From Deltaproteobacteria bacterium (GTDB lineage: Bacteria > UBA10199 > DSSB01 > JACPFA01), in NCBI GenBank assembly GCA_016183235.1, contig JACPFA010000026.1, positions 33,284-97,283 on the forward strand: DNA of 64,000 nucleotides. Reading direction: 5' to 3'. Positions within the stretch are counted from its first letter, which is position 1. The number at the start of each line of letters is the position of its first letter. The notes under the pieces are model-generated. The model worked only from the letters and a program-made list of their open reading frames with translations. It did no database searches and was not told the origin of the DNA. Positions 4,409 to 64,000 of the stretch are shown one piece after another. The translations under genes were made by a program, and so were the position numbers.

Positions 4409-4665
4409 TAAAAAGTTTTAGTGAAGAGGGCTAAGGGGTTGAGCTAGAATCCGCACCCGTAAAGCCTGCTCGGCTCAAAAAATTATTTATTTTTAATTGA
4501 ATTAGAGTATTCCTTCGTCATCCTCTAATTTCGTCATCCTCTAATTCAAAAAAATAATATAATTTTTTGAACCTCCGGAGCCTGTCCTGAGGCTTTGCGA
4601 AGGAGCTTTACTCCTGCTACAGGTTCTCAACATACCCCCTTAGGCCACTTCAGGAAGACTTTTTA
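4409..4665. repeat. F-type long hairpin element, copy 1
   Basis: The termini AAAAAGTTTTAGTGAAG...CTTCAGGAAGACTTTTT are inverted repeats. The interior holds smaller palindromes and a tandem tcgtcatcctctaatt x2. The termini match the element at 62609-62825. Confidence 0.7.
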
Positions 4666-4690
4666 TATCTCTGCAAATATTTGAGAAGAA

Positions 4691-4931
4691 GTCTTTTCGA
4701 GGTAGGGAGAGGCCAAGGGAGAGCCTTTTACCAGGAGGGCGGCCTATGATAGTTTCTGTCATTGCGAACTTAAGCGGGTGAAGCAATCTCTTCTGCCTAA
4801 GCGATGGGATTGCCACGCTCGCTATCATGGGTCCCCGCCTTCGCGGGGATGACACCGCTCGCAATGACAGAGGCCCTCATAGGCCGACCGGGCGCGGGCT
4901 CTCCATTGGCCTCTCCCTACCTCGAAAAGAC
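4691..4931. repeat. three-level nested palindrome (outer stem, then A-type element, then GC hairpin)
   Basis: The outer arms gtcttttcgaggtagggagaggccaagggagagcc / ggctctccattggcctctccctacctcgaaaagac enclose ggcctatga/tcataggcc. These enclose the ctgtcattgcga...tcgcaatgacag element (4756-4870), which in turn encloses atcatgggtccccgccttcgcggggatgacac (4824-4855). Confidence 0.85.
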
Positions 4932-17943: not shown

Positions 17944-17966
17944 GGCACCTCTAATAACTTGGATTT

Positions 17967-18119
17967 GGGGGGACCTCTAAAAAGGGCGTGAGATGCAAGG
18001 CGCCCGCAAAGGCGCGACCGGAGCGTATATGGAAATACGTGAGGATCGCGGCTTTGCGGGCAATCCTTCGCTTACGCTCTGGACAGGCTCTGCAGATGGG
18101 TCGTTTTTAGAGGTCCCCC
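17967..18119. repeat. D-type structured palindromic element, copy 1
   Basis: Terminal inverted repeats GGGGGACCTCTAAAAA / TTTTTAGAGGTCCCCC and an internal 15-bp stem (18002-18016 with 18047-18061). It is homologous to 56903-57028 and abuts the stop codon at 18120. Confidence 0.85.
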
Positions 18120-18596
18120 TTAATGAGTGGCATTTCTTTCTAACTGCTCCAAACGAGAATAAAGGTTCAACACATCTTGTTTGAGCGTAGTAATCTCTCC
18201 TTGTAACTCCCCTTTGGTAACATAATTTTTTTCAATGCGCTTGAGTTGCTCGTTGGCAAATAGATATTCCTGGCGCAGATCTTCGAATTTTTTGTAAAGA
18301 TCTTCAAAATGTTCATTCATTTCTTGGCGCAGGTCTCCCACCTCTTTTTTGATGATACCATGGATGTCAGGTTTAATAACTTTGTGATAATATTCTTCAA
18401 ATTGAATTAGATTCCCGGGCCGAATCACCTTCTGATAGTACTCACCAAACTGCTCAACATTAGCGGGCCGAATCACCTTTTGATAATATTCACTAAACTG
18501 TTCTAAATTAGCGGGCCGAATCACCTTTTGATAAAACTTCTCCAGCTGCGAAAGAGTAAGGGGGTTTTCTGTTTCTGTCTTTTTCTTTGGAGGCAT
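18120..18596 (-). CDS. coiled-coil protein with 15-aa tandem repeats
   Basis: 158 aa with four tandem copies of YYQKVIRPANxEQFxE (45-nt period, 18369-18545), followed by a heptad-like helical C-terminus. Confidence 0.6.
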   Translation of the reverse strand: MPPKKKTETENPLTLSQLEKFYQKVIRPANLEQFSEYYQKVIRPANVEQFGEYYQKVIRPGNLIQFEEYYHKVIKPDIHGIIKKEVGDLRQEMNEHFEDLYKKFEDLRQEYLFANEQLKRIEKNYVTKGELQGEITTLKQDVLNLYSRLEQLERNATH

Positions 18597-21237: not shown

Positions 21238-22121
21238 TCGACCTCAAGGCCTACCTGGCTAATCGCAAGACTCTCATCGAGGCCGCCTTAGAAAAATTTT
21301 TGCTCCCCACCACAACTTGGCCTACAAGTTTGCATCAAGCCATGCGTTATAGCATGATGGCGGGCGGCAAGCGCTTGCGCCCTATCTTGGTATTAGCAGG
21401 CTGTGAAGCGGTGGCTGGGGATATCGAGGTTGCCATTCCTACGGCCTGCGCCATGGAGATGATCCACACCTATTCGCTCATTCACGACGACCTGCCCGCC
21501 ATGGATGATGACGATTTGCGCCGCGGGCACCCCACCAATCACAAAGTTTACGGCGAGGCCATTGCAATTTTAGCCGGTGATTCATTACTCACCGAGGCCT
21601 TTAGCATGATCGCCAAAACGCCTATTCCATCTACACACACCGCTCAACTTTTAAAGGTCATTGCCTTGATTGCCGATGCGGCAGGGTCTGGTGGCATGGC
21701 GGGGGGGCAAGTGGTTGACCTCGAGAGTGAACATAAAAAAATTAGCGCTGAGGAATTAAAAAAAATCCATGTGCATAAAACCGGCAAATTAATTCAAGCC
21801 TCGGTGACGGCAGGGGCCATGCTGGGCAAGGGTTCGGAAGCACAAATTAACAACCTAGGCCATTACGGCATGAACATTGGGCTCGCCTTTCAAATCGCCG
21901 ACGATATTTTAGACATTGAAGGCGGTGAAGCGATTGGCAAAGATGTAGGCAGCGACCTCGCCAAAGAAAAATCGACCTACCCCTCTGTGCTAGGTATGGA
22001 AACTTCGCGCAAACTCGCCCATGATTTAATCGAGGAAGCCCTAGGCAACCTCCAAGGCTTCTCCGCCCATGCCGACCCCCTCCGGGCCATTGCTCAATAT
22101 GTCATTAGCCGTAAAAATTAA
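21234..22121 (+). CDS. ispA: farnesyl/geranyl diphosphate synthase
   Basis: 295 aa with the first Asp-rich motif LIHDDLPAMDDDDLRRG and the second FQIADDILD. Confidence 0.92.
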   Translation: MIDLKAYLANRKTLIEAALEKFLLPTTTWPTSLHQAMRYSMMAGGKRLRPILVLAGCEAVAGDIEVAIPTACAMEMIHTYSLIHDDLPAMDDDDLRRGHPTNHKVYGEAIAILAGDSLLTEAFSMIAKTPIPSTHTAQLLKVIALIADAAGSGGMAGGQVVDLESEHKKISAEELKKIHVHKTGKLIQASVTAGAMLGKGSEAQINNLGHYGMNIGLAFQIADDILDIEGGEAIGKDVGSDLAKEKSTYPSVLGMETSRKLAHDLIEEALGNLQGFSAHADPLRAIAQYVISRKN

Positions 22122-22558
22122 AGGAGAGGATTGACCACTTTTATTTTGGGGAATCGGTGCAGATCCGAATCTGCCGTATAAATGATAGAAATATCATGTT
22201 CTCTCATCAGGGCTACGTGATGGGCGTCGTGAATTAAATTCCCAACCAGTCGGAAATTCCACTTTGATAAGTCCCGCAAATAAGTAAGATGGTCCTCGGT
22301 TTCAGCCAAAATAGTAATGTTAGGAGCGGAAGAAAAAAAGACAACATTTTGTAAGGCCGCTTCAAGGGTTAAGGTTTGCCCCTTAAAAAGTTGGGGATGC
22401 GTCACAACCCTTAAATATTCATAAATGACTCCCCAACTAAAATACCATAAGTCATTTTCTTGAAGGCAATTTTTTAGAAAGTCCTTGGCCTTAGAATGTT
22501 CTGGAAAACTGGAATAAGTTGCATACACGAATAGGTTGGTGTCGATAAATGCCTTCAC
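22118..22558 (-). CDS. vapC: PIN-domain toxin (VapC family)
   Basis: 146 aa starting MKAFIDTNLFVYA (the first acidic PIN residue). It is conserved in position after a small antitoxin gene, and its 3' end overlaps the ispA 3' end by 4 nt. Confidence 0.8.
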   Translation of the reverse strand: MKAFIDTNLFVYATYSSFPEHSKAKDFLKNCLQENDLWYFSWGVIYEYLRVVTHPQLFKGQTLTLEAALQNVVFFSSAPNITILAETEDHLTYLRDLSKWNFRLVGNLIHDAHHVALMREHDISIIYTADSDLHRFPKIKVVNPLL

Positions 22559-22803
22559 AGGTTATTTTTGGAAATTAAATCAAAATAGGTTGAACGATCA
22601 GAAGGATCGAAATGAGCAACCGGTTCTGCCTTGCTACTATTCCAGTGAAATTCGACCTTTTTTTTATTTCGAATTCGATAAGACTGAAGACCTTCGCGCA
22701 ATAATTCATTCACGAGTTCTTTAAAACTGCGCTTCTCTTGCAAAGAAAGAAGCCTTAGTTCTTTTTCAACTTTTGTTTCTAATGGGATGGTCGTCCGATG
22801 CAC
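22555..22803 (-). CDS. vapB: VapB-type antitoxin
   Basis: 82 aa with a 4-nt overlap with vapC. The N-terminus (TTIPLETKVEKELRLLSLQEKRSFKELVNELL) is RHH/CopG-like. Confidence 0.65.
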   Translation of the reverse strand: MHRTTIPLETKVEKELRLLSLQEKRSFKELVNELLREGLQSYRIRNKKKVEFHWNSSKAEPVAHFDPSDRSTYFDLISKNNL

Positions 22804-22858
22804 GCTTTTAAGTTTTATATAAAAACATCAAAATGTCAATATAGAATCATCTTGATGC

Positions 22859-23060
22859 GTAATGCTTCAGTCTTGCAGGGAGAGCGCTTGGGTTATTTCG
22901 TCAGCCGCGCTCCATCGGCGACCCTCATGGGGCTAGCCGGCACGGAAGCCTTCCGGTATAACCGGCTTTCCATGCCGGCTAACCCGCATGGGGGCCCCGC
23001 CGCTTCCGCGATGGCTTCCTCAACAACCCAAGCACTCTCCCTGCAAGACTGAAGCATTAC
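22859..23060. mobile_element. MITE-like palindromic element (E-type, copy 1) with an 8-bp target-site duplication
   Basis: 202 bp with terminal inverted repeats of ~36 bp and one mismatch (gtaatgcttcagtcttgcagggagagcgcttgggtt / aacccaagcactctccctgcaagactgaagcattac). It is flanked directly by CTTGATGC at 22851-22858 and 23061-23068. Confidence 0.8.
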
Positions 23061-23347
23061 CTTGATGCTAAATTGGATTTCAAAGCAAAATCTTCGTAAA
23101 TTGTCTTGCGAGCCCCTAAGGTGAGAATTTCGATTTGTTTTTCTTCCTCAGCCACACGGTATAAAACCCTAAAATGTTTGACGCGCAAGGATCTTAGACC
23201 CGTCAACTCTTTTTGCAGGGCTTTTCCCGCCCAAGGATCTGCCTGGAGGCTATCTAATGCCAACCGAATCAATGATTTTAAAACGGGATGTAATTGACGA
23301 ATGCGTAGTTTTGCCTCGGAGGTATAAATGAGATGAAACGCTCTCAA
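23057..23347 (-). CDS. RelE/ParE-family toxin
   Basis: 96 aa, ...DPWAGKALQKELTGLRSLRVKHFRVLYRVAEEEKQIEILTLGARKTIYE, the RelE/ParE pattern. The stop codon TAA is supplied by the terminus of the inserted element. Confidence 0.8.
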   Translation of the reverse strand: MRAFHLIYTSEAKLRIRQLHPVLKSLIRLALDSLQADPWAGKALQKELTGLRSLRVKHFRVLYRVAEEEKQIEILTLGARKTIYEDFALKSNLASR

Positions 23348-23613
23348 TCCTCAAAAACCTCTTGATGAGAATGCCAGTTTTTAGCACGGCTTTCTTTTAA
23401 GGCACGGTGCAAAGAACGGAGTAAGCTTTGGTCATGCAAAATTTCTAACGTCTCTAACAAACCCTCATATTCCTCAGGGCTCATTAAAATACCCGCGGCT
23501 TGCCCATCTTTCGTAATAGCCACTACACCCCCTTGATTTTGAAGAGACTTGAGCAGCTTCATTAGCTCTCGCTTAACTTGGGTCACAGGTAGAATTTTGT
23601 CGGAATGAATCAT
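23344..23613 (-). CDS. Phd/YefM-family antitoxin
   Basis: MIHSDKILPVTQVKRELMKLLKSLQNQGGVVAITKDGQAAGILMSPEEYEGLLETLEI is classic Phd/YefM. ATG 23613 (after AAAGGA) is preferred over the track start at 23670. Confidence 0.8.
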   Translation of the reverse strand: MIHSDKILPVTQVKRELMKLLKSLQNQGGVVAITKDGQAAGILMSPEEYEGLLETLEILHDQSLLRSLHRALKESRAKNWHSHQEVFED

Positions 23614-23778
23614 TTTAAAGTATCCTTTAAAGGGCCTTTTAAAGGTAAACTTTAAAGCATTCATTGTCAAGGTCTATCACAGAACTTTCATGGTTCTCAC
23701 GGTTCTCAAATTACACAACCCTTTTTTAAAATAACCGATAATTTAACTAGTTTGGGGTGGATTAACGAAGGGGTTTTT

Positions 23779-27868: not shown

Positions 27869-28858
27869 TCAAGATCCGTTGGAATTTACGGGTGGAATCT
27901 CTCGGGCCAAATGGCAGGCCACCCACTTGCCAGGTTCAAAGGTTTCTAAGCCGGGCCGTGTGTTTTTGCAAAGGTCTTGGACATACTGACAGCGTTTGTG
28001 AAAAACGCAACCCTCCGGAAGATTGATGGGCGAAGGCACCTCACCGCCCAATAATTTAGGGGGTTTACGCTCCACCGAAACCTCCATCACACTACCCAAC
28101 AGGGCCTGCGTATAAGGATGACGGCATTGAAAAAGCTGATCGGCAGGCAGGGTTTCTACCACGTGGCCCAAATACATCACCGCAATTTCGTCGCTGATAT
28201 GCCGCACCACTTTAATATCGTGGGCAATAAAAATATAGGTGAGGTTCATCTCTTGCTGCAGCTCTTTTAAAAGATTAATAATTTGGGCTTGAATTGAAAC
28301 ATCGAGCGCGCTCACCGGCTCGTCGGCCACGACTAATTGCGGATGCAACATGAGGGCACGGGCAATGCCAATGCGTTGGCGCTGGCCGCCGGAAAATTCG
28401 TGGGGATATTTGCTACGGGCGTTGTGCGGCAGCCCCACTCGGTCGAGCATGGCCTCCACTTGTTTTTGCCGTTCTGGATAATCCCCAATTTTTTGCACGA
28501 TGAGGGGTTCTTCTAAAATGTCCCCCACTCGCATCCGGGGATTGAGTGAAGAATAAGGGTCTTGAAAAATCATTTGAAAATGCCGGCGCAAGGGCCGCAA
28601 TTGCCCCTCGGTAAGATCGGTAAGGTTGGTGCTGTCAAAATAAATTTTGCCTTGGCTTGGGTTAATCAGGCGCATGATCATGCGCCCCAGCGTGGTTTTG
28701 CCACAGCCCGACTCGCCAACAAGACCCAAAGTCTTGCCCTTTTGCAAGGTAAAACTCACCCCATTGACCGCTTGCACTTGGCCAACGGTGCGGCCCAGAA
28801 ATCCCTTGCGGATGGGAAAATGTTTCACTAAATTGTCAACTTTAAGAAGTTCAGTCAT
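27869..28858 (-). CDS. oligopeptide/dipeptide ABC transporter ATP-binding protein (OppF/DppF type)
   Basis: 329 aa with Walker [10 protein letters not shown], signature FSGGQRQR, Walker B LVVADEP and the C-terminal oligopeptide-type extension. Confidence 0.9.
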
Positions 28859-29125
28859 AATTTCATATCATTACAAAGCACATGTTTTCTGTCATTGCGA
28901 ACGATGTCATCCCCGCGAAGTATGCCCTCGACCCCGATCGGGGGGCGGGGACCCATGATACCGAGCGTGGCAATCCGACCAAAGGTCGTCCTGAGGCTTT
29001 AGCCGAAGGATCTCTTACAAACGAAGAGATCCCTCGCAAAACCTCGGGACAATGCTTCGCATTGGATTGCTTCACCCTGCTGGGTTCGCAATGACAGAGA
29101 ATAAAAGGCTCGCAATGACAAAAGA
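28859..29125. repeat. 267-bp mosaic of A-, GC-hairpin- and C-type repeat modules between two ATPase genes
   Basis: It contains ctgtcattgcgaac, gtcatccccgcg...cggggacccatgat, cgagcgtggcaatcc, the C module gtcctgaggctttagccgaaggatctcttacaaacgaagagatccctcgcaaaacctcgggac, and two tcgcaatgaca termini. Confidence 0.9.
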
Positions 29126-30127
29126 TTAATAATTCAGACATCGTAAATTCTGCCCTTCTCCTACGTACTTTTCGCTTGGCACTTTTAAGTGACAAGCCGC
29201 GCTCACATTAAAGCAGCGGTCGGCAAAACGACAGCCCTCTGGTAATTCTGCCAAATCAGGGACCTTGCCAGGAATTGACGCAAGAGTTCCGGTTTTTTGA
29301 CGCAAGGTGGGGATGGAATGCAGTAGCCCTAGCGTGTAGGGATGTTTGGGTAAACTAAGTAGCCGCCCTACGGGAGCCTGCTCCACCACCATGCCGGCGT
29401 ACATCACCAACACTTCATCACAAATTTGCGAAACCACCCCTAAATCGTGGGTGATGAGGATGACCGCCATGCCCATCTCGGCAACCAATTCACGAATTAA
29501 TTGTAAAATTTGCGCTTGCACCGTTACATCCAGCGCGGTGGTGGGTTCATCGGCAATTAAAATATCGGGGTGGCAAGACAAGGCCATGGCGATCATCACC
29601 CGTTGCCGCATGCCACCGCTCATTTGGTGAGGGTAGTCATCAATGCGACGTTCGGGGTCAGGGATTTTAACCTTGGTTAACATTTCAATCGCCAACTCGC
29701 GGGCCCGCCCTTTATTGACCTTTTGATGCAAAATAATGGCCTCCATAATTTGTTGGCCCACCGTATAAACCGGGTTGAGGCTGGTCATGGGTTCTTGAAA
29801 GATCATGGCGATCTTGGCCCCTCGCACCTCGCACATTTTTTCTTCGTTGAGTTTCAATAAATCAACCGGCAAGGCAGGCTGCTCTTCTTGGCTGGTAAAT
29901 AAAAAGACTTCTCCAGATTCAATCTTACCCGGGGCATCAACCAGCCGCATTAAAGATAAACTAGTGACCGTCTTGCCACAGCCCGATTCGCCCACAATCC
30001 CCAAAATCTGCCCCCGCCGTAGGTCAAAACTCACGTGGTCGACCGCCACGAGTTTTTTGCCTTTAAGCGTAAAGGTCGTAACCAGGTCTTTGACTTTTAA
30101 CAATAATGGATCCGCAGCTTTTTTCAT
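29126..30127 (-). CDS. oligopeptide/dipeptide ABC transporter ATP-binding protein (OppD/DppD type)
   Basis: 333 aa with Walker [10 protein letters not shown], signature MSGGMRQR and Walker B ILIADEP. Confidence 0.9.
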
Positions 30128-34383: not shown

Positions 34384-34565
34384 TGCGCGGAACTCTGTCA
34401 TTGCGAACCCAGGGGACTCTCTGTCATTGCGAGCCCAACGGGCGTGGCAATCCCACCGGTTAGACGCAGAGAGATTGCTTCGCCCTGCTGGGCTCGCAAT
34501 GACAGAGAATTCCCTTGGCTCGCAATGACAGAGAATTCCCTTGGTTCGCAATGACAGAATAAAGC
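34384..34565. repeat. array of gtcattgcga / tcgcaatgac units, including a 26-bp tandem repeat
   Basis: Three forward and three reverse termini. ctcgcaatgacagagaattcccttgg is repeated in direct tandem with no spacers. Confidence 0.9.
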
Positions 34566-56902: not shown

Positions 56903-57028
56903 GGAGGCCTCGAAAAAGGGCCCAGATGCAAGGTGCCTGCAAAATCGCGCCCGGGGCGTATGTGCAAATACGTGAGGATCGCGATTTTGCAGGCAACGCC
57001 GCAGATGGGTCGTTTTTAGAGGCCTCCT
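56903..57028. repeat. D-type structured palindromic element, copy 2 (between atpA and atpG)
   Basis: Termini GGAGGCCTCGAAAAA / TTTTTAGAGGCCTCC and a perfect 15-bp internal stem (56935-56949 with 56980-56994). It is homologous to 17967-18119 and ends 2 nt from the atpA stop. Confidence 0.85.
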
Positions 57029-57029
57029 T

Positions 57030-58538
57030 TTACGCTACAAAGTGTTGTTTAAATTGCTCTAGCGCCTGATTGAGTCTTTGTTTAATTTCTGCCGTTAATT
57101 CTTTTTTGCTGCGCAGGTCATTCAATAAACCGTTGTGTTTGCTTTCCATATAAAGGGGCAATTCTTCCAAATATTTTTGAATCTTTGCCGTAGGATAAGC
57201 ATCTAAATAGCCATTGGTTGCGGCATAGATTTGAATGACTTGCAGCTCCACGGGCATGGGTTCGTATTGCCCTTGCTTTAACACCTCCACTAGGCGTTCC
57301 CCCCGGGCTAGCTGGGCCTGAGTGGCCGCATCCAAATCGCTCCCAAATTGGGCAAAGGCCGCCAACTCACGAAATTGGGCTAATTCTAACCGCAAAGTTC
57401 CCGCTACTTGTTTCATCATTTTCACTTGGGCATTCCCTCCCACCCGTGAAACTGAGAGCCCCACGTTAACCGCAGGCCGCACCCCTGAATAAAATAAGTC
57501 GGTTTCTAAATAAATTTGGCCATCCGTAATAGAAATTACGTTGGTAGGGATATAAGCCGAAACGTCCCCCGCTTGGGTTTCAATGATGGGCAACGCGGTT
57601 AAAGACCCGCCACCTCGCGCGCTACTTAGTTTTGCGGCCCGTTCCAAAAGACGGGAATGCAGATAAAAAACATCCCCAGGATAAGCCTCGCGCCCGGGCG
57701 GCCTACGGAGTAACAACGAAAGCTGGCGATAGGCCACCGCTTGTTTAGACAAATCATCATAAATGATAAGGGCGTGCTTGCCATTGTCTCGAAAATATTC
57801 GCCAATGGTGCAACCGGAATAAGGGGAAATAAATTGCAAAGGCGCCGGGGTAGAAGCCGCCGCCACCACAATGACCGTGTAATCCATGGCCCCATGTTTT
57901 TTAAGTTTTTCCACCACTTGGGCCACGGTAGATTGCTTCTGCCCAATGGCAACGTAAATACAATAACAGTCTTTGCCTTTTTGATTAATGATCGTATCCA
58001 AGGCCACCGCGGTTTTGCCGGTTTGACGGTCGCCAATGATCAACTCCCGTTGCCCACGCCCAATAGGGATCATGGCATCAATGGCTTTGAGCCCGGTTTG
58101 CAAAGGGATTTTAACCGGCTCTCGATCGACAATCCCGGGGGCTTTAATTTCAATGCGTCGAGAAAGTTTGGATTCAATCGGCCCTAAACCATCGAGCGGA
58201 TTCCCCAGTGCGTCAATGACGCGGCCTAATACCGCTTCGCCCACCGGGACTTCAGCAATTCTCCCCGTCCGTTTGACTTCATCCCCTTCTCTAATCTTAA
58301 CATCCTCGCCCATGATGGCCACGCCTACATTGTCTTCTTCTAAGTTGAGGGCCAAGCCATAAACCTCGCCCGGAAATTCTAACAACTCGCCCGCCATAAC
58401 CTTAGTCAACCCATACACCCGCGCAATCCCATCCCCCACCGAAAGAACCGTGCCTATTTCGGTCATTTCGACCAACTGCCCAAACCCAAGTATTTGTTTT
58501 TGAATAATCTCTGATATTTCATCTGGCCTGATTTGCAT
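57030..58538 (-). CDS. atpA: ATP synthase F1 alpha subunit
   Basis: 502 aa with Walker [10 protein letters not shown] and conserved alpha blocks ([21 protein letters not shown]). Confidence 0.97.
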
Positions 58539-61653: not shown

Positions 61654-62466
61654 TCATAATAAAACTTCGCCCTGAAACTGCCCCTCTTGAACTATATTTT
61701 GTACGTTTTTTATACCAACCAATTCTCGAGTCAAATCAAGATAACTTTGTGCCCCCTTAGAACGTACATCATAATTAATGATCGACTTACCATGTGATGG
61801 GCTCTCCCCCAACTTCACATTTCTTGGAATCACCGTTTGAAATACTTTTTCTCCAAAAAAATTGCGGATCTCTTCGGCCACTTGTCTGGCAAGATTATTT
61901 CTTGCGTCAAACATGGTTAAGATGATTCCACCAATTTGTAATTTTGGATTTAAATGGGTCTTTATTAATTCGATGGTGCGCGTCAATTCACTCAAACCTT
62001 CCAAGGCAAAATATTCACATTGCACAGGGATCAGCACTGCATCACAGGCCGTAAGCGCATTGACCGTCAACAAATTTAAGGAAGGAGGACAATCAATGAG
62101 AATAAAATCATAATCTTCTTCTAAATTTTTAAGAGCACTTTTTAATTTTGATTCTCGGGCAAACACCGACACCAACTCTAGCTCTGCCCCCACCAGCTGG
62201 GTGTTGGCGGGCAGCAGGTCTAAATATTCGAGATCGGTTGACACCACAGCCGCTTCCACCGCCACTTCATTAATCAACACTTCATAAATACTTTGCGTGA
62301 TTTCTTGTTTCACAAAACCCAAGCCGCTAGTGGAATTGCCTTGGGGATCTAAATCCACCAACAGAGTTTTGCGTTCGGCTGCCGCCAGGCAAGACGCCAC
62401 ATTGATGGCAGTGGTAGTTTTACCAACTCCGCCTTTTTGATTAGTGATGGCGAAAATTTTTGCCAT
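61654..62466 (-). CDS. parA: chromosome partitioning ATPase ParA/Soj
   Basis: 270 aa with the deviant Walker A NQKGGVGKTTTAINV and Walker B FILIDCPPS. Confidence 0.95.
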   Translation of the reverse strand: MAKIFAITNQKGGVGKTTTAINVASCLAAAERKTLLVDLDPQGNSTSGLGFVKQEITQSIYEVLINEVAVEAAVVSTDLEYLDLLPANTQLVGAELELVSVFARESKLKSALKNLEEDYDFILIDCPPSLNLLTVNALTACDAVLIPVQCEYFALEGLSELTRTIELIKTHLNPKLQIGGIILTMFDARNNLARQVAEEIRNFFGEKVFQTVIPRNVKLGESPSHGKSIINYDVRSKGAQSYLDLTRELVGIKNVQNIVQEGQFQGEVLL

Positions 62467-62581
62467 TTAATTTAAAATAAACCTATTTAATTGGATTTAC
62501 GTTGGATTGAGATACACACCTTTTATCGTAATCCAAAATTTTTAGCAACAAAAATATACATGTAATATAATGTATGTCATC

Positions 62582-62597
62582 GGTTGCACGTGAAACG
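62582..62597. promoter_or_regulatory. degenerate parS-like site
   Basis: GGTTGCACGTGAAACG matches the parS consensus TGTTTCACGTGAAACA at 13 of 16 positions. Confidence 0.35.
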
Positions 62598-62608
62598 CAA
62601 CTCGCTCA

Positions 62609-62825
62609 CCTAAAAAGTTTTACTGAAGTCGGCAGAGGCTTCCAGGGGTCCGTGTCGCCTGGGGGTTACGGCCCCCAGGCGCACTCAAAGTCTCAGCTTT
62701 CACGGCTATATAGCCATAGAGGTGAAAACTGGAGTTTACCCTGAGCACTTCGCCAAGACTCAGTGTAAACTCCGCGAAGGGACAAACCCCTTCCAGCCTC
62801 AGCCAACTTCAGTAAAACTTTTTAT
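62609..62825. repeat. F-type long hairpin element, copy 2
   Basis: Termini AAAAAGTTTTACTGAAGT / ACTTCAGTAAAACTTTTT. The interior holds several perfect small hairpins, e.g. GCCTGGGGG-ttacgg-CCCCCAGGC. It is followed by the 20-bp unit TTTATAT(T/C)TCTGCAAATATT x2 (62821-62860). Confidence 0.8.
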
Positions 62826-62870
62826 ATTTCTGCAAATATTTTTATATCTCTGCAAATATTTGTATGGATA

Positions 62871-63089
62871 TAAAAAGCGAGGGATGCGACTTTGCGGTTG
62901 AGTTAGCTTTTTCGACCCATCGCGGAATCGCCGGGGCCCCCAATGCGGGCTAGCCGGCATGGAAAGCCGAGGCCCGCCGCAGGCGGGAACGCGGAAGGCT
63001 TCCGTGCCGGCTAGCCCCATTAGGGTCGGCGATGGAGCGCCGGGTCGAAAAAGCTAACTCAACCGCAAAGTCGCATCCCTCGCTTTTTA
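62871..63089. repeat. E-type palindromic element, copy 2 (same core as 22907-23014, different outer stem)
   Basis: Outer arms taaaaagcgagggatgcgactttgcggttgagttagctttttcgaccc and their complement. The core 62917-63040 is about 94% identical to the reverse complement of the E1 core. Confidence 0.85.
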
Positions 63090-63154
63090 GTGCAACAATT
63101 TGAATATTTATTTGCGGTGATGACTTTATTCTCCAGGAGACTTTAACCCCCACT

Positions 63155-63170
63155 TGTTTCATGTGAAACA
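63155..63170. promoter_or_regulatory. parS centromere-like site
   Basis: TGTTTCATGTGAAACA matches the parS consensus TGTTTCACGTGAAACA at 15 of 16 positions. It lies 8 nt beyond the mnmG stop and ~690 bp upstream of parA. Confidence 0.6.
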
Positions 63171-63177
63171 AAAGCCC

Positions 63178-64000
63178 TCAAGCGGCTGCTTTGCCATTGA
63201 GTTGTTTTTTTAAAAAGATGGCCAGGATGCTTAAGGCTGCGGGGGTGATGCCTGATATTTTGCTCGCTTCATCAAGATTAGAGGGGGCGAACTTTTTTAA
63301 TTTCTCGACCACTTCCTGAGAAAGCCCTGGAATTTTATCAAAGGAAAATTTTTCTGGAAAGGCGTGCTCGGCCAGTTGTTGGTATTGCCGAGCTAAAATT
63401 TTGCCTCGTTCAATATAGCCGGAGTATTTAGTCTCCACCTCTGCTGTATAGAGATTCTCTGGATCGTAGGTCTTCATAAACCCAAGCTTTTCTGAAAAAA
63501 CCTCGACAAGATTTACTAGGTTGCATTCTGGTCGGCAAAGAATTTCAGACAAGGGCAGGGGTTTTTTAAGCGGAGCTGTTTTTAAGGTGTCTTCCATTAT
63601 CTGATTAATTTCTGGTGTGGGGTAAAAAATGATTTCTTTTAAAGCTTCTTGGATGGTGGTGACTTGAGTCCTCCGGTGAATAAAGTCCCCATATTCTTTG
63701 TGATCGATCAAGCCTAAAGTCATGCCTAGTTCTCTCAATCGAAGATCGGCGTTATCTTCCCTCAATAACAATCGATGTTCAGCTCGAGAAGTAAACATGC
63801 GATAAGGTTCACCACAGGTGCCTTTTGTCACCAGGTCATCAATCAACACACCAATGTAGGCCTGATCTCGAGTCAAAATGAAGGGTTTTTCTCCCCGGAT
63901 TTTCAACACAGCGTTAATTCCAGCCATCAGCCCTTGAGCCGCTGCCTCTTCGTAACCTGAAGTTCCATTGATTTGGCCGGCTAAAAATAAATTTTCGATG
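63178..64000 (-). CDS. mnmG: tRNA uridine 5-carboxymethylaminomethyl modification enzyme MnmG (GidA), C-terminal part
   Basis: The reading frame continues upstream of the track's Met at 63927 to the window edge (...LAGQINGTSGYEEAAAQGLMAGINA...YRMFTSRAEHRLLLREDNADLRL). The 5' end lies beyond 64000. Confidence 0.93.
   Translation of the reverse strand, partial: IENLFLAGQINGTSGYEEAAAQGLMAGINAVLKIRGEKPFILTRDQAYIGVLIDDLVTKGTCGEPYRMFTSRAEHRLLLREDNADLRLRELGMTLGLIDHKEYGDFIHRRTQVTTIQEALKEIIFYPTPEINQIMEDTLKTAPLKKPLPLSEILCRPECNLVNLVEVFSEKLGFMKTYDPENLYTAEVETKYSGYIERGKILARQYQQLAEHAFPEKFSFDKIPGLSQEVVEKLKKFAPSNLDEASKISGITPAALSILAIFLKKQLNGKAAA

Follow-up and report, generated by a model that had tools for sequence, protein, structure and literature searches.

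E1 and E2, probable copies of a MITE-like hairpin repeat family with a conserved, oriented core in an uncultured groundwater lineage

The two long palindromes E1 and E2, which lie within the 64,000-nt stretch of DNA that was analysed as a whole (the window), are probably copies of a non-coding, MITE-like hairpin repeat family belonging to the mobile DNA of an uncultured groundwater lineage. The family has several of the properties by which MITEs are recognised, i.e., short non-coding elements with terminal inverted repeats, several dispersed copies, and insertion polymorphism. Target duplications were found at E1 (CTTGATGC) and at the copy located downstream of a response-regulator gene (RR; CTTGAAAA), for which contig L036 provides the empty site, and not at the E2, rnhB, TPR, M16 or L005 copies. 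Against this assignment stand the strand asymmetry of the element and its conserved G.U pairs, neither of which is required by a plain double-strand DNA transposon.

Anatomy of E1 and E2

The element represented by E1 and E2 is real and oriented. Members of the family are ~190–220 bp long and include a GC-rich, imperfect and oriented core of 108–126 nt, which has either a short or a long apex and is enclosed by long arms (Table 1). A palindromic core of ~110 nt common to E1 and E2 had been described in the first-pass annotation, and the results from blastn and alignment bear this out. The inverted match is 96% over 49 nt and 92% over 53 nt, with the apex in between, and it aligns the plus strand of the E1 core with the minus strand of the E2 core; the mutual orientation of the two elements is therefore opposite. 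The apexes, read directly, are different as had been described, i.e., CCGG-TATAA-CCGG in E1 and CCCGCC-GCAG-GCGGG with its flanks in E2. The arms of E1 pair over 36 nt at 97% and over 48 nt at 88%, those of E2 over 48 nt at 100%, and the lone mismatch in the outer stem of E1 (pair 27/176) is indeed C/A on the plus strand and U.G on the minus strand. The outer stems had also been called unrelated. This holds to the extent that blastn gives no match between the arm pair of E1 and that of E2, and fails in that the alignment of eight loci reveals an in-register box common to all arms and, beside the core, one of two junction motifs.

The fold z-scores of the two elements (-14 and -19) lie far outside chance. 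A covariance model of the core, run unfiltered, found exactly two sites in the window, namely E1 (minus strand, 121.6 bits; plus strand, 44.5 bits) and E2 (plus strand, 137.4 bits; minus strand, 43.8 bits). The other palindromes of the window reach at most 30 bits with the same model. The better-scoring strand, i.e., minus at E1 and plus at E2, is referred to here as the S strand, and the other as AS.

The element is not a protein gene. The core is open in just two of the six frames and has stops in the other four, and a 1-nt indel, together with the difference in the apex, shifts or breaks the frame between copies. The look-alike ORFs noted in the first-pass annotation are present at 22798–23052 (+) and 62799–63020 (-). 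In three protein database searches with these spurious ORFs, including a concatenated six-frame query, the sole match was another copy of the element. As regards annotation, the two ORFs, of 84 and 73 aa, are no longer candidate genes.

Table 1. Features of E1 and E2 and the eight loci at which the element was found.
Feature	Position or contig	Strand	Remarks
E1 target-site duplication, left	22851..22858		CTTGATGC; 8/8 direct repeat exactly at the palindrome edge
E1 outer arm	22859..22906	-	GTAATGCTTCAG..., including one side of the junction internal loop ATTTCGTCAGCC; inverted repeat with 23013–23060
E1 core, short apex	22907..23014	-	minus is the better-folding S strand; blastn and alignment to E2, covariance model, RNA and DNA folds
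E1 outer arm	23013..23060	-	...CTGAAGCATTAC; the tip provides the TAA stop (23057–23059) of the RelE/ParE-like gene at 23057–23347
E1 target-site duplication, right	23061..23068		CTTGATGC
E2 outer arm	62871..62918	+	TAAAAAGCGAGGGATGCGACTTTGCGGTTGAGTTAGCTTTTTCGACCC; 48 nt perfectly complementary to 63042–63089; no flanking direct repeat
E2 core, long apex	62917..63040	+	extra CCCGCC-GCAG-GCGGG hairpin; S strand is plus
E2 outer arm	63042..63089	+	exact reverse complement of 62871–62918
Locus E1	window, 22859..23060		whole element
Locus E2	window, 62871..63089		whole element; mnmG-parA spacer
Locus rnhB	L003, L031, L032, L033		downstream of rnhB
Locus RR	L004, L034, L035		downstream of response-regulator gene
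Locus tRNA-Thr	L005		adjoining tRNA-Thr
Locus HU	L021, L022, L025		upstream of HU gene
Locus TPR	L037, L038		downstream of TPR-repeat gene
Locus M16	L036:176-369		downstream of M16 peptidase gene

Copies of the element

The element is present at eight distinct loci (Table 1), which are distributed over the source MAG, a groundwater "Deltaproteobacteria bacterium", and strains related to it. The copies were drawn from independent assemblies (NCBI, JGI, ENA, and Logan). Four matches to the element were obtained in the JGI groundwater metagenome 3300025308, the protein match of a spurious ORF led to a Hainich groundwater contig with a further copy, and orthologous loci were added by look-ups of neighbouring proteins in ENA, JGI and Logan assemblies. 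In contig L002, the TPR and M16 loci have been fused at their common core; this chimera was dropped from both the covariation set and the locus count. The copies occupy unrelated intergenic sites, usually directly at the stop codon of a gene.

As far as the data reach, all eight loci belong to one narrow lineage. The genome contig collection contained no match to a 26-base gapped pattern of the core and no close relative of ParB, which indicates that this collection has no close representative of the lineage. No match to the element was found in the plasmid and phage collections; L007, a phage contig from the viral-contig scan, was rejected as a chance GC-rich hairpin. A comparison with Rfam had been suggested earlier. 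In Rfam 15, searched with the whole window, no family reaches the gathering score, and in E-value mode the matches are just generic hairpins resembling miRNA precursors, far under the gathering score.

Insertion polymorphism and target-site duplications

The presence and absence of the element from strain to strain, together with its 8-bp target duplications, identify it as mobile DNA. Among closely related strains, presence/absence was observed at three loci, i.e., mnmG-parA, HU and RR. E2 is missing from the orthologous mnmG-parA spacer of L009 and L012; these strains lacking E2 have a ParA at least 90% identical to that of the window (MBI2336371.1), with which it shares a 90%-identity cluster. 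Of the contigs covering the region upstream of the HU gene, three contain the element, and seven, which lack it, have other hairpin families against the same junction. At the empty site of the RR locus, in L036, the stop codon of the regulator is followed by a spacer of 18 nt (gcatgCTTGAAAAacattt) and then by the next gene; in the filled site, L004 carries the element with CTTGAAAA on either side. The possibility that the arms are inverted duplications of the local flank was not supported for the E1 type, as the empty site shows that the arms come with the element.

Based on a boundary scan, 8/8 direct repeats are located at the palindrome ends of E1 and the RR copy only (null probability of an 8/8 repeat within ±8 nt, 0.008); the same scan revealed no target duplication at the palindrome ends of the E2, rnhB, TPR, M16 and L005 copies. 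When the element is read in one orientation, the duplications of E1 and RR both begin with CTTGA, which, in two cases only, is a hint of a target preference. The insertion point of E1 lies 1–2 bases ahead of the stop codon of the RelE/ParE-like gene, the new TAA of which comes from the element, and reconstruction of the sequence before insertion yields an identical end of the protein, ...ASR*. Insertions of the element can be employed as strain-level markers for typing.

Upstream of the HU gene in L023–L030 (e.g., L024:~600–630), the alleles without the element have the sequence ATGACAT-TACTCGGA-ATGACATC, i.e., a 7-nt direct repeat around 8 nt that match (7/8) the tip of the L021 arm. This 8-nt segment could be an excision scar between target duplications. 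The segment after ispA (window 22118–23670 compared with L018/L019:2554–4578) is also strain-variable: in the window it consists of a PIN/VapB-like pair, E1, and a RelE/Phd-like pair, and in related strains of a single gene of 674 aa.

Arms, junctions and proposed exchange of the core

Conservation is highest in the centre of the element and lowest in its arms. All copies nevertheless have in common an arm box, (A)GTCTTTGC(A)G, which is located in register ~25–35 nt from the core, as well as one of two motifs beside the core, which on the S strand are ...GTTGAGGAAGCC on the 5' side and GGCTGACGAAAT... on the 3' side. This junction is asymmetric in E1, RR and L005, with an internal loop and tandem G.A pairs. 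In E2, TPR and HU, it is symmetrised to the 3' motif and its complement, and in M16 to the 5' motif and its complement. These three states are the outcome to be expected if one arm is recopied off the other, in either direction. Recopying would also explain why the arms, which are ~25% divergent between copies, are 100% paired over 42–48 bp (e.g., 42 nt at 100% in the rnhB copy and 43 nt at 100% in the TPR copy). Template switching in a hairpin, or quasi-palindrome correction, is a known process.

The core, for its part, resembles its paralogues more closely than its orthologues. Two strains have the element at the same insertion site of the RR locus and can be compared as orthologues: flank and arm are 97.4% and 95.7% identical, respectively, and the core half only 80.4%. 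The apex is short in one of these strains and long in the other, and the Logan contigs of one strain stop inside the core. Across loci, the type of apex is not congruent with the type of arm. Since the RR core is more divergent than its arms and flanks, and since apexes and arms do not match, cores appear to move between carriers. From this handful of loci, we infer both the recopying of arms and an exchange of cores between loci, either by gene conversion or as a unit. With its drifting yet paired arms, two-way symmetrisation of junctions, and core that is alike between paralogues, the family represents a compact case for the study of palindromic repeat evolution.

Covariation and strand asymmetry

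In the core alignment of eight loci, standard pairs occupy 93.6% of the cells. Both sides have changed in 16 of the 49 core pairs, compared with 8.7±1.7 in shuffles (0/500 reaching the observed value) and 1–7 in slid controls. The covariation check that had been proposed earlier is accordingly significant, with double-changed pairs above both the shuffled and the slid controls. E1 and the RR copy in L004 are full-length relatives in different contexts, and can be compared at 83 pairs. Sixty-four of these are unchanged and 14 have changed on both sides with the pairing kept, 11 compensated changes being located in the arms; three one-sided changes stay G.U on the S strand, and two broken pairs are at the tips. 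Compensatory changes across the hairpin are common in REPINs (PMC3116915), and the MITE-like bcr1 of Bacillus combines direct repeats with compensated changes that keep the fold (PMC3184786). Given that such changes are also found in DNA-mobile hairpins, the covariation test cannot tell RNA from DNA here.

The score of the S strand with the covariance model is ~80–95 bits above that of the other strand. It is also the more stable strand, by 5–18 kcal/mol as RNA (6/6 full copies tested) and by 3–5 kcal/mol as DNA (4/4 copies). The unpaired positions of S are mostly purine-purine (G.A, A.G, G.G) and those of the other strand pyrimidine-pyrimidine; the counts of G.T and A.C, 19 against 17, have no strand bias. 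The bulges, one C.A mismatch, one U.G pair and one G.U pair are kept in 8/8 loci. This asymmetry hints at the recognition of one folded strand, be it DNA or RNA, and is the principal observation for which a plain double-strand transposon does not account.

Two possibilities had been raised in the first-pass annotation for the core. That of a conserved recognition hairpin is still reasonable; the hairpin is conserved, oriented and statistically covarying. That of a structured RNA, taken as a free-standing gene, is not supported: there is no Rfam family and no adjoining promoter or terminator, the orientation relative to genes is inconsistent, copies are gained and lost, and target duplications are present. 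Scans for sigma-70-like promoters and intrinsic terminators gave none adjoining E1 or E2, and read-through from the upstream gene would carry AS in five of the six gene-end copies. Upstream of parA, at 62542–62580, there are divergent promoter-like sites, TTAGCA-18-TATAAT (+) and ATGACA-16-TATATT (-), and a plus-strand start at this position would traverse the hairpin at 62611–62824 and then E2 on its S strand.

Proposed mechanism and alternative explanations

We propose that the copies are mobilised by a trans-acting transposase, which would be absent from the data examined; neither a transposase nor an autonomous parent element was seen in the 64-kb window and the short related contigs. The 8-bp duplication suggests that this would be a DDE enzyme. 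The arms would stay paired via arm-to-arm recopying, i.e., template switching or quasi-palindrome correction in the hairpin, and the uniformity of the core might be due to exchange between loci together with a need for the asymmetric loops, the core probably being recognised by a protein as a single-strand hairpin. Should the core indeed be such a recognised hairpin, it would point to a new mobilising enzyme in an uncultured group. The exchange of cores might also be read as nested insertion, in which the ~110-nt core is an independent mobile cassette within the apexes of palindromic carriers, and the arms come from other repeat families. We give this a small but appreciable chance. It would accommodate the RR locus, where the same arms (95.7%) enclose different core types (core half 80.4%), and the incongruence of apex and arm types; the genome is rich in nested palindrome families, such that the arms of family E recur inside family F, and different hairpin families are found at the same junction in different strains. 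However, ~180 kb of related sequence contains no core-less arm pair, the in-register GTCTTTGC box and the junction motifs in all arms fit arms and core descending together, and the difference at RR could be ordinary gene conversion or reflect a unitig that ends inside the repeat. We consider improbable the further step of regarding the core as a self-contained hairpin cassette of which the folded, purine-looped S strand is read by a dedicated enzyme, and which lands in the apexes of unrelated palindromic carriers or is traded among them. One site- or structure-specific exchange system, in place of ordinary transposition plus gene conversion, would in that case lie behind both the nested hairpin mosaics and the hot spots with alternative hairpins.

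The strand asymmetry might alternatively reflect function as RNA. The copies would then be paralogous RNA genes, i.e., a family of structured small RNAs or cis RNA modules, in which the S strand forms a rod and GGA-rich purine loops bind a protein or set the stability of an mRNA. The significant covariation, the U.G and G.U pairs conserved at 8/8 loci, the greater stability of the S strand in every case, and the predominance of G.A, A.G or G.G among the mismatches of the S loops are all consistent with such a role, and several copies, being directly after stop codons, would be co-transcribed. We consider it unlikely nonetheless: Rfam yields generic hairpin noise only, E1 and E2 have no promoter or terminator, read-through carries AS rather than S in 5/6 gene-end copies, perfect helices of 42–48 bp are unusual for functional RNAs, and the compensated changes are known from DNA-mobile hairpins too (PMC3116915), while the polymorphism between strains and the target duplications demonstrate that the element inserts as DNA. 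The core hairpin is imperfect and oriented, keeps its bulges and mismatches, and has one favoured strand, which would suit a single-strand DNA transposon of the REPIN/IS200-IS605 type, in which a RAYT-like HUH tyrosine transposase recognises the core hairpin at the replication fork, excises it and reinserts it. Conservation, moreover, sits in the hairpin and not in the termini, and the empty HU alleles keep ~8 nt of the arm tip, comparable to the ~6 bp left by REPIN excision (PMC3116915). Yet there is no evident conserved cleavage tetranucleotide or guide-like flank, no RAYT gene was seen in the sequence read, and E1 and E2 have opposite orientations on one replichore (the GC skew is monotonic across the window). 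The 8-bp target duplications of E1 and RR contradict this explanation, as HUH single-strand transposition, to our knowledge, makes none; it is thus quite unlikely. That the perfect arms are artefacts of assembly, from fold-back or from chimeric joins at repeats, is very improbable for the family at large. The L002 chimera was joined via the shared core, many contigs break at elements, and the outermost 10 nt of the L021 arm are at a contig end. On the other hand, a 172-kb contig has both E1 and E2 in its interior, each between unique flanks, identical copies at rnhB and TPR are found inside contigs of 17–61 kb from different projects, and the direct repeats and the empty site are mutually coherent; an artefact is excluded for the E1, E2, rnhB and TPR copies.

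Comparison with known systems

The preferred reading, a MITE-like repeat, makes this a novel family of the known hairpin-MITE kind, which is unusual in that its centre is the conserved part, its arms drift fast yet stay perfectly paired, and cores have apparently been swapped at an orthologous locus. Hairpin MITEs such as bcr1, ERIC/IRU and the Neisseria Correia elements (PMC3184786) are likewise ~200 bp long and non-coding, with inverted-repeat arms and target duplications in the form of direct repeats. They are intergenic, often located at the 3' ends of genes, form long hairpins, and vary in position between close strains (PMC3184786). In contrast to these, the present element has no sequence relationship to anything in Rfam, plasmids or phages, its arms are much longer and perfectly paired (42–48 bp), and target duplications occur in one of its subfamilies only. 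The termini are the best conserved part of a classical MITE, whereas it is the centre that is best conserved here.

REPINs, which RAYT transposases mobilise, are also high-identity intergenic hairpin repeats with compensated changes, their excision leaves a few terminal bases, and their asymmetric, oriented structure is thought to act as single-stranded DNA (PMC3116915). Their defining layout, however, is two conserved REP ends and a variable spacer, and the layout found here is the reverse, with a conserved centre and variable ends; in addition, E1-type copies have 8-bp target duplications, and the lineage has no known RAYT gene. The IS66 family of insertion sequences has inverted repeats that start with GTAAGCG and 8-bp direct repeats (PMC11946415). 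The E1-type termini, GTAATGC, and the 8-bp duplication constitute a weak match to it: GTAATGC and GTAATGCC align with the consensus over the first four bases (GTAA) only, 8-bp duplications are made by other families too, and the termini of E2, rnhB and TPR are different. No IS66 transposase was seen in the 64-kb window and the short related contigs.

Like the attC sites of integrons, the element is an imperfect palindrome that keeps certain bases unpaired, varies at its apex and folds in a strand-specific manner, and E1 is located between two toxin-antitoxin pairs. Unlike attC, its boundaries have no RYYYAAC/GTTRRRY boxes, the copies are solitary and dispersed instead of forming cassette arrays, and target duplications are present. 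The attC sites, 6S RNA, retron msr/msd and protelomerase-type palindromes were dropped as candidates, their anatomy or genomic context being unfitting.

Other hairpin families in the lineage

Several other palindromic families were encountered in the window and in the related contigs. One of these (window 4691–4931, L002:1617–1700, L036:389–592) has the arms GTCTTTTCGAGGTAGGGAGAGG.CAAGGGAGAGCC (35 nt, 97%), which enclose a second inverted repeat with the motif TCTGTCATTGCGA; in L036 it directly adjoins the M16 copy of the element. Units of TCTGTCATTGCGA(A/G)CC / GGCTCGCAATGACAGAG, both inverted and in tandem, are present in the window at 34393–34558, 28858–29128 and 4737–4889, as well as upstream of HU in L024, L026 and L029, and reach ~30 bits with the core covariance model through structure alone. 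Another hairpin family, GGGGGACCTCTAAAAAG...GCCCGCAAAGGCGCG...TACGTGAGGATCGCG..., has two copies in the window, at 17963–18124 and 56910–57030. The latter separates the gamma and alpha subunit genes of the ATP synthase operon, to which its strand with the purine loops is antisense.

The mnmG-parA spacer (window 62466–63178; L009:3288–3910; L012:1–716), which lacks rsmG, is a hot spot. All strains have kept one hairpin there, at 62611–62824 in the window, the arms of which are 39 nt long. The stretch proximal to mnmG is occupied by E2 in the window, by a hairpin with the arms GCTAACGATAAATTTAGTAGCC... in L009, and in L012 by that same hairpin together with one having the arms GAGCGGGGGCATGCCTGTTTGAAAAC. 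An AT-rich motif, TTTTTATAT(C)TCT(G)CAAATATTTG, is found at 4664–4685 and 62826–62866 of the window, at 130–160 and 362–400 of L012, and at 480–520 of L005. It contains the 10-bp self-palindrome CAAATATTTG and adjoins several hairpin families, in some places as tandem or inverted copies; it might serve as a linker or as a favoured site of insertion. A 25-nt inverted duplication of the flank beside element G in L012 was set aside, as it is largely explained by the self-palindrome CAAATATTTG.

The short-read Logan contigs of the window's own strain (L006, L013–L017, L034 and L035) stop inside or at the edge of hairpin repeats, e.g., ~30 nt into the arm of E1 and inside the hairpin at 62611–62824. 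Thus, hairpin repeats fragment the assemblies of this lineage.
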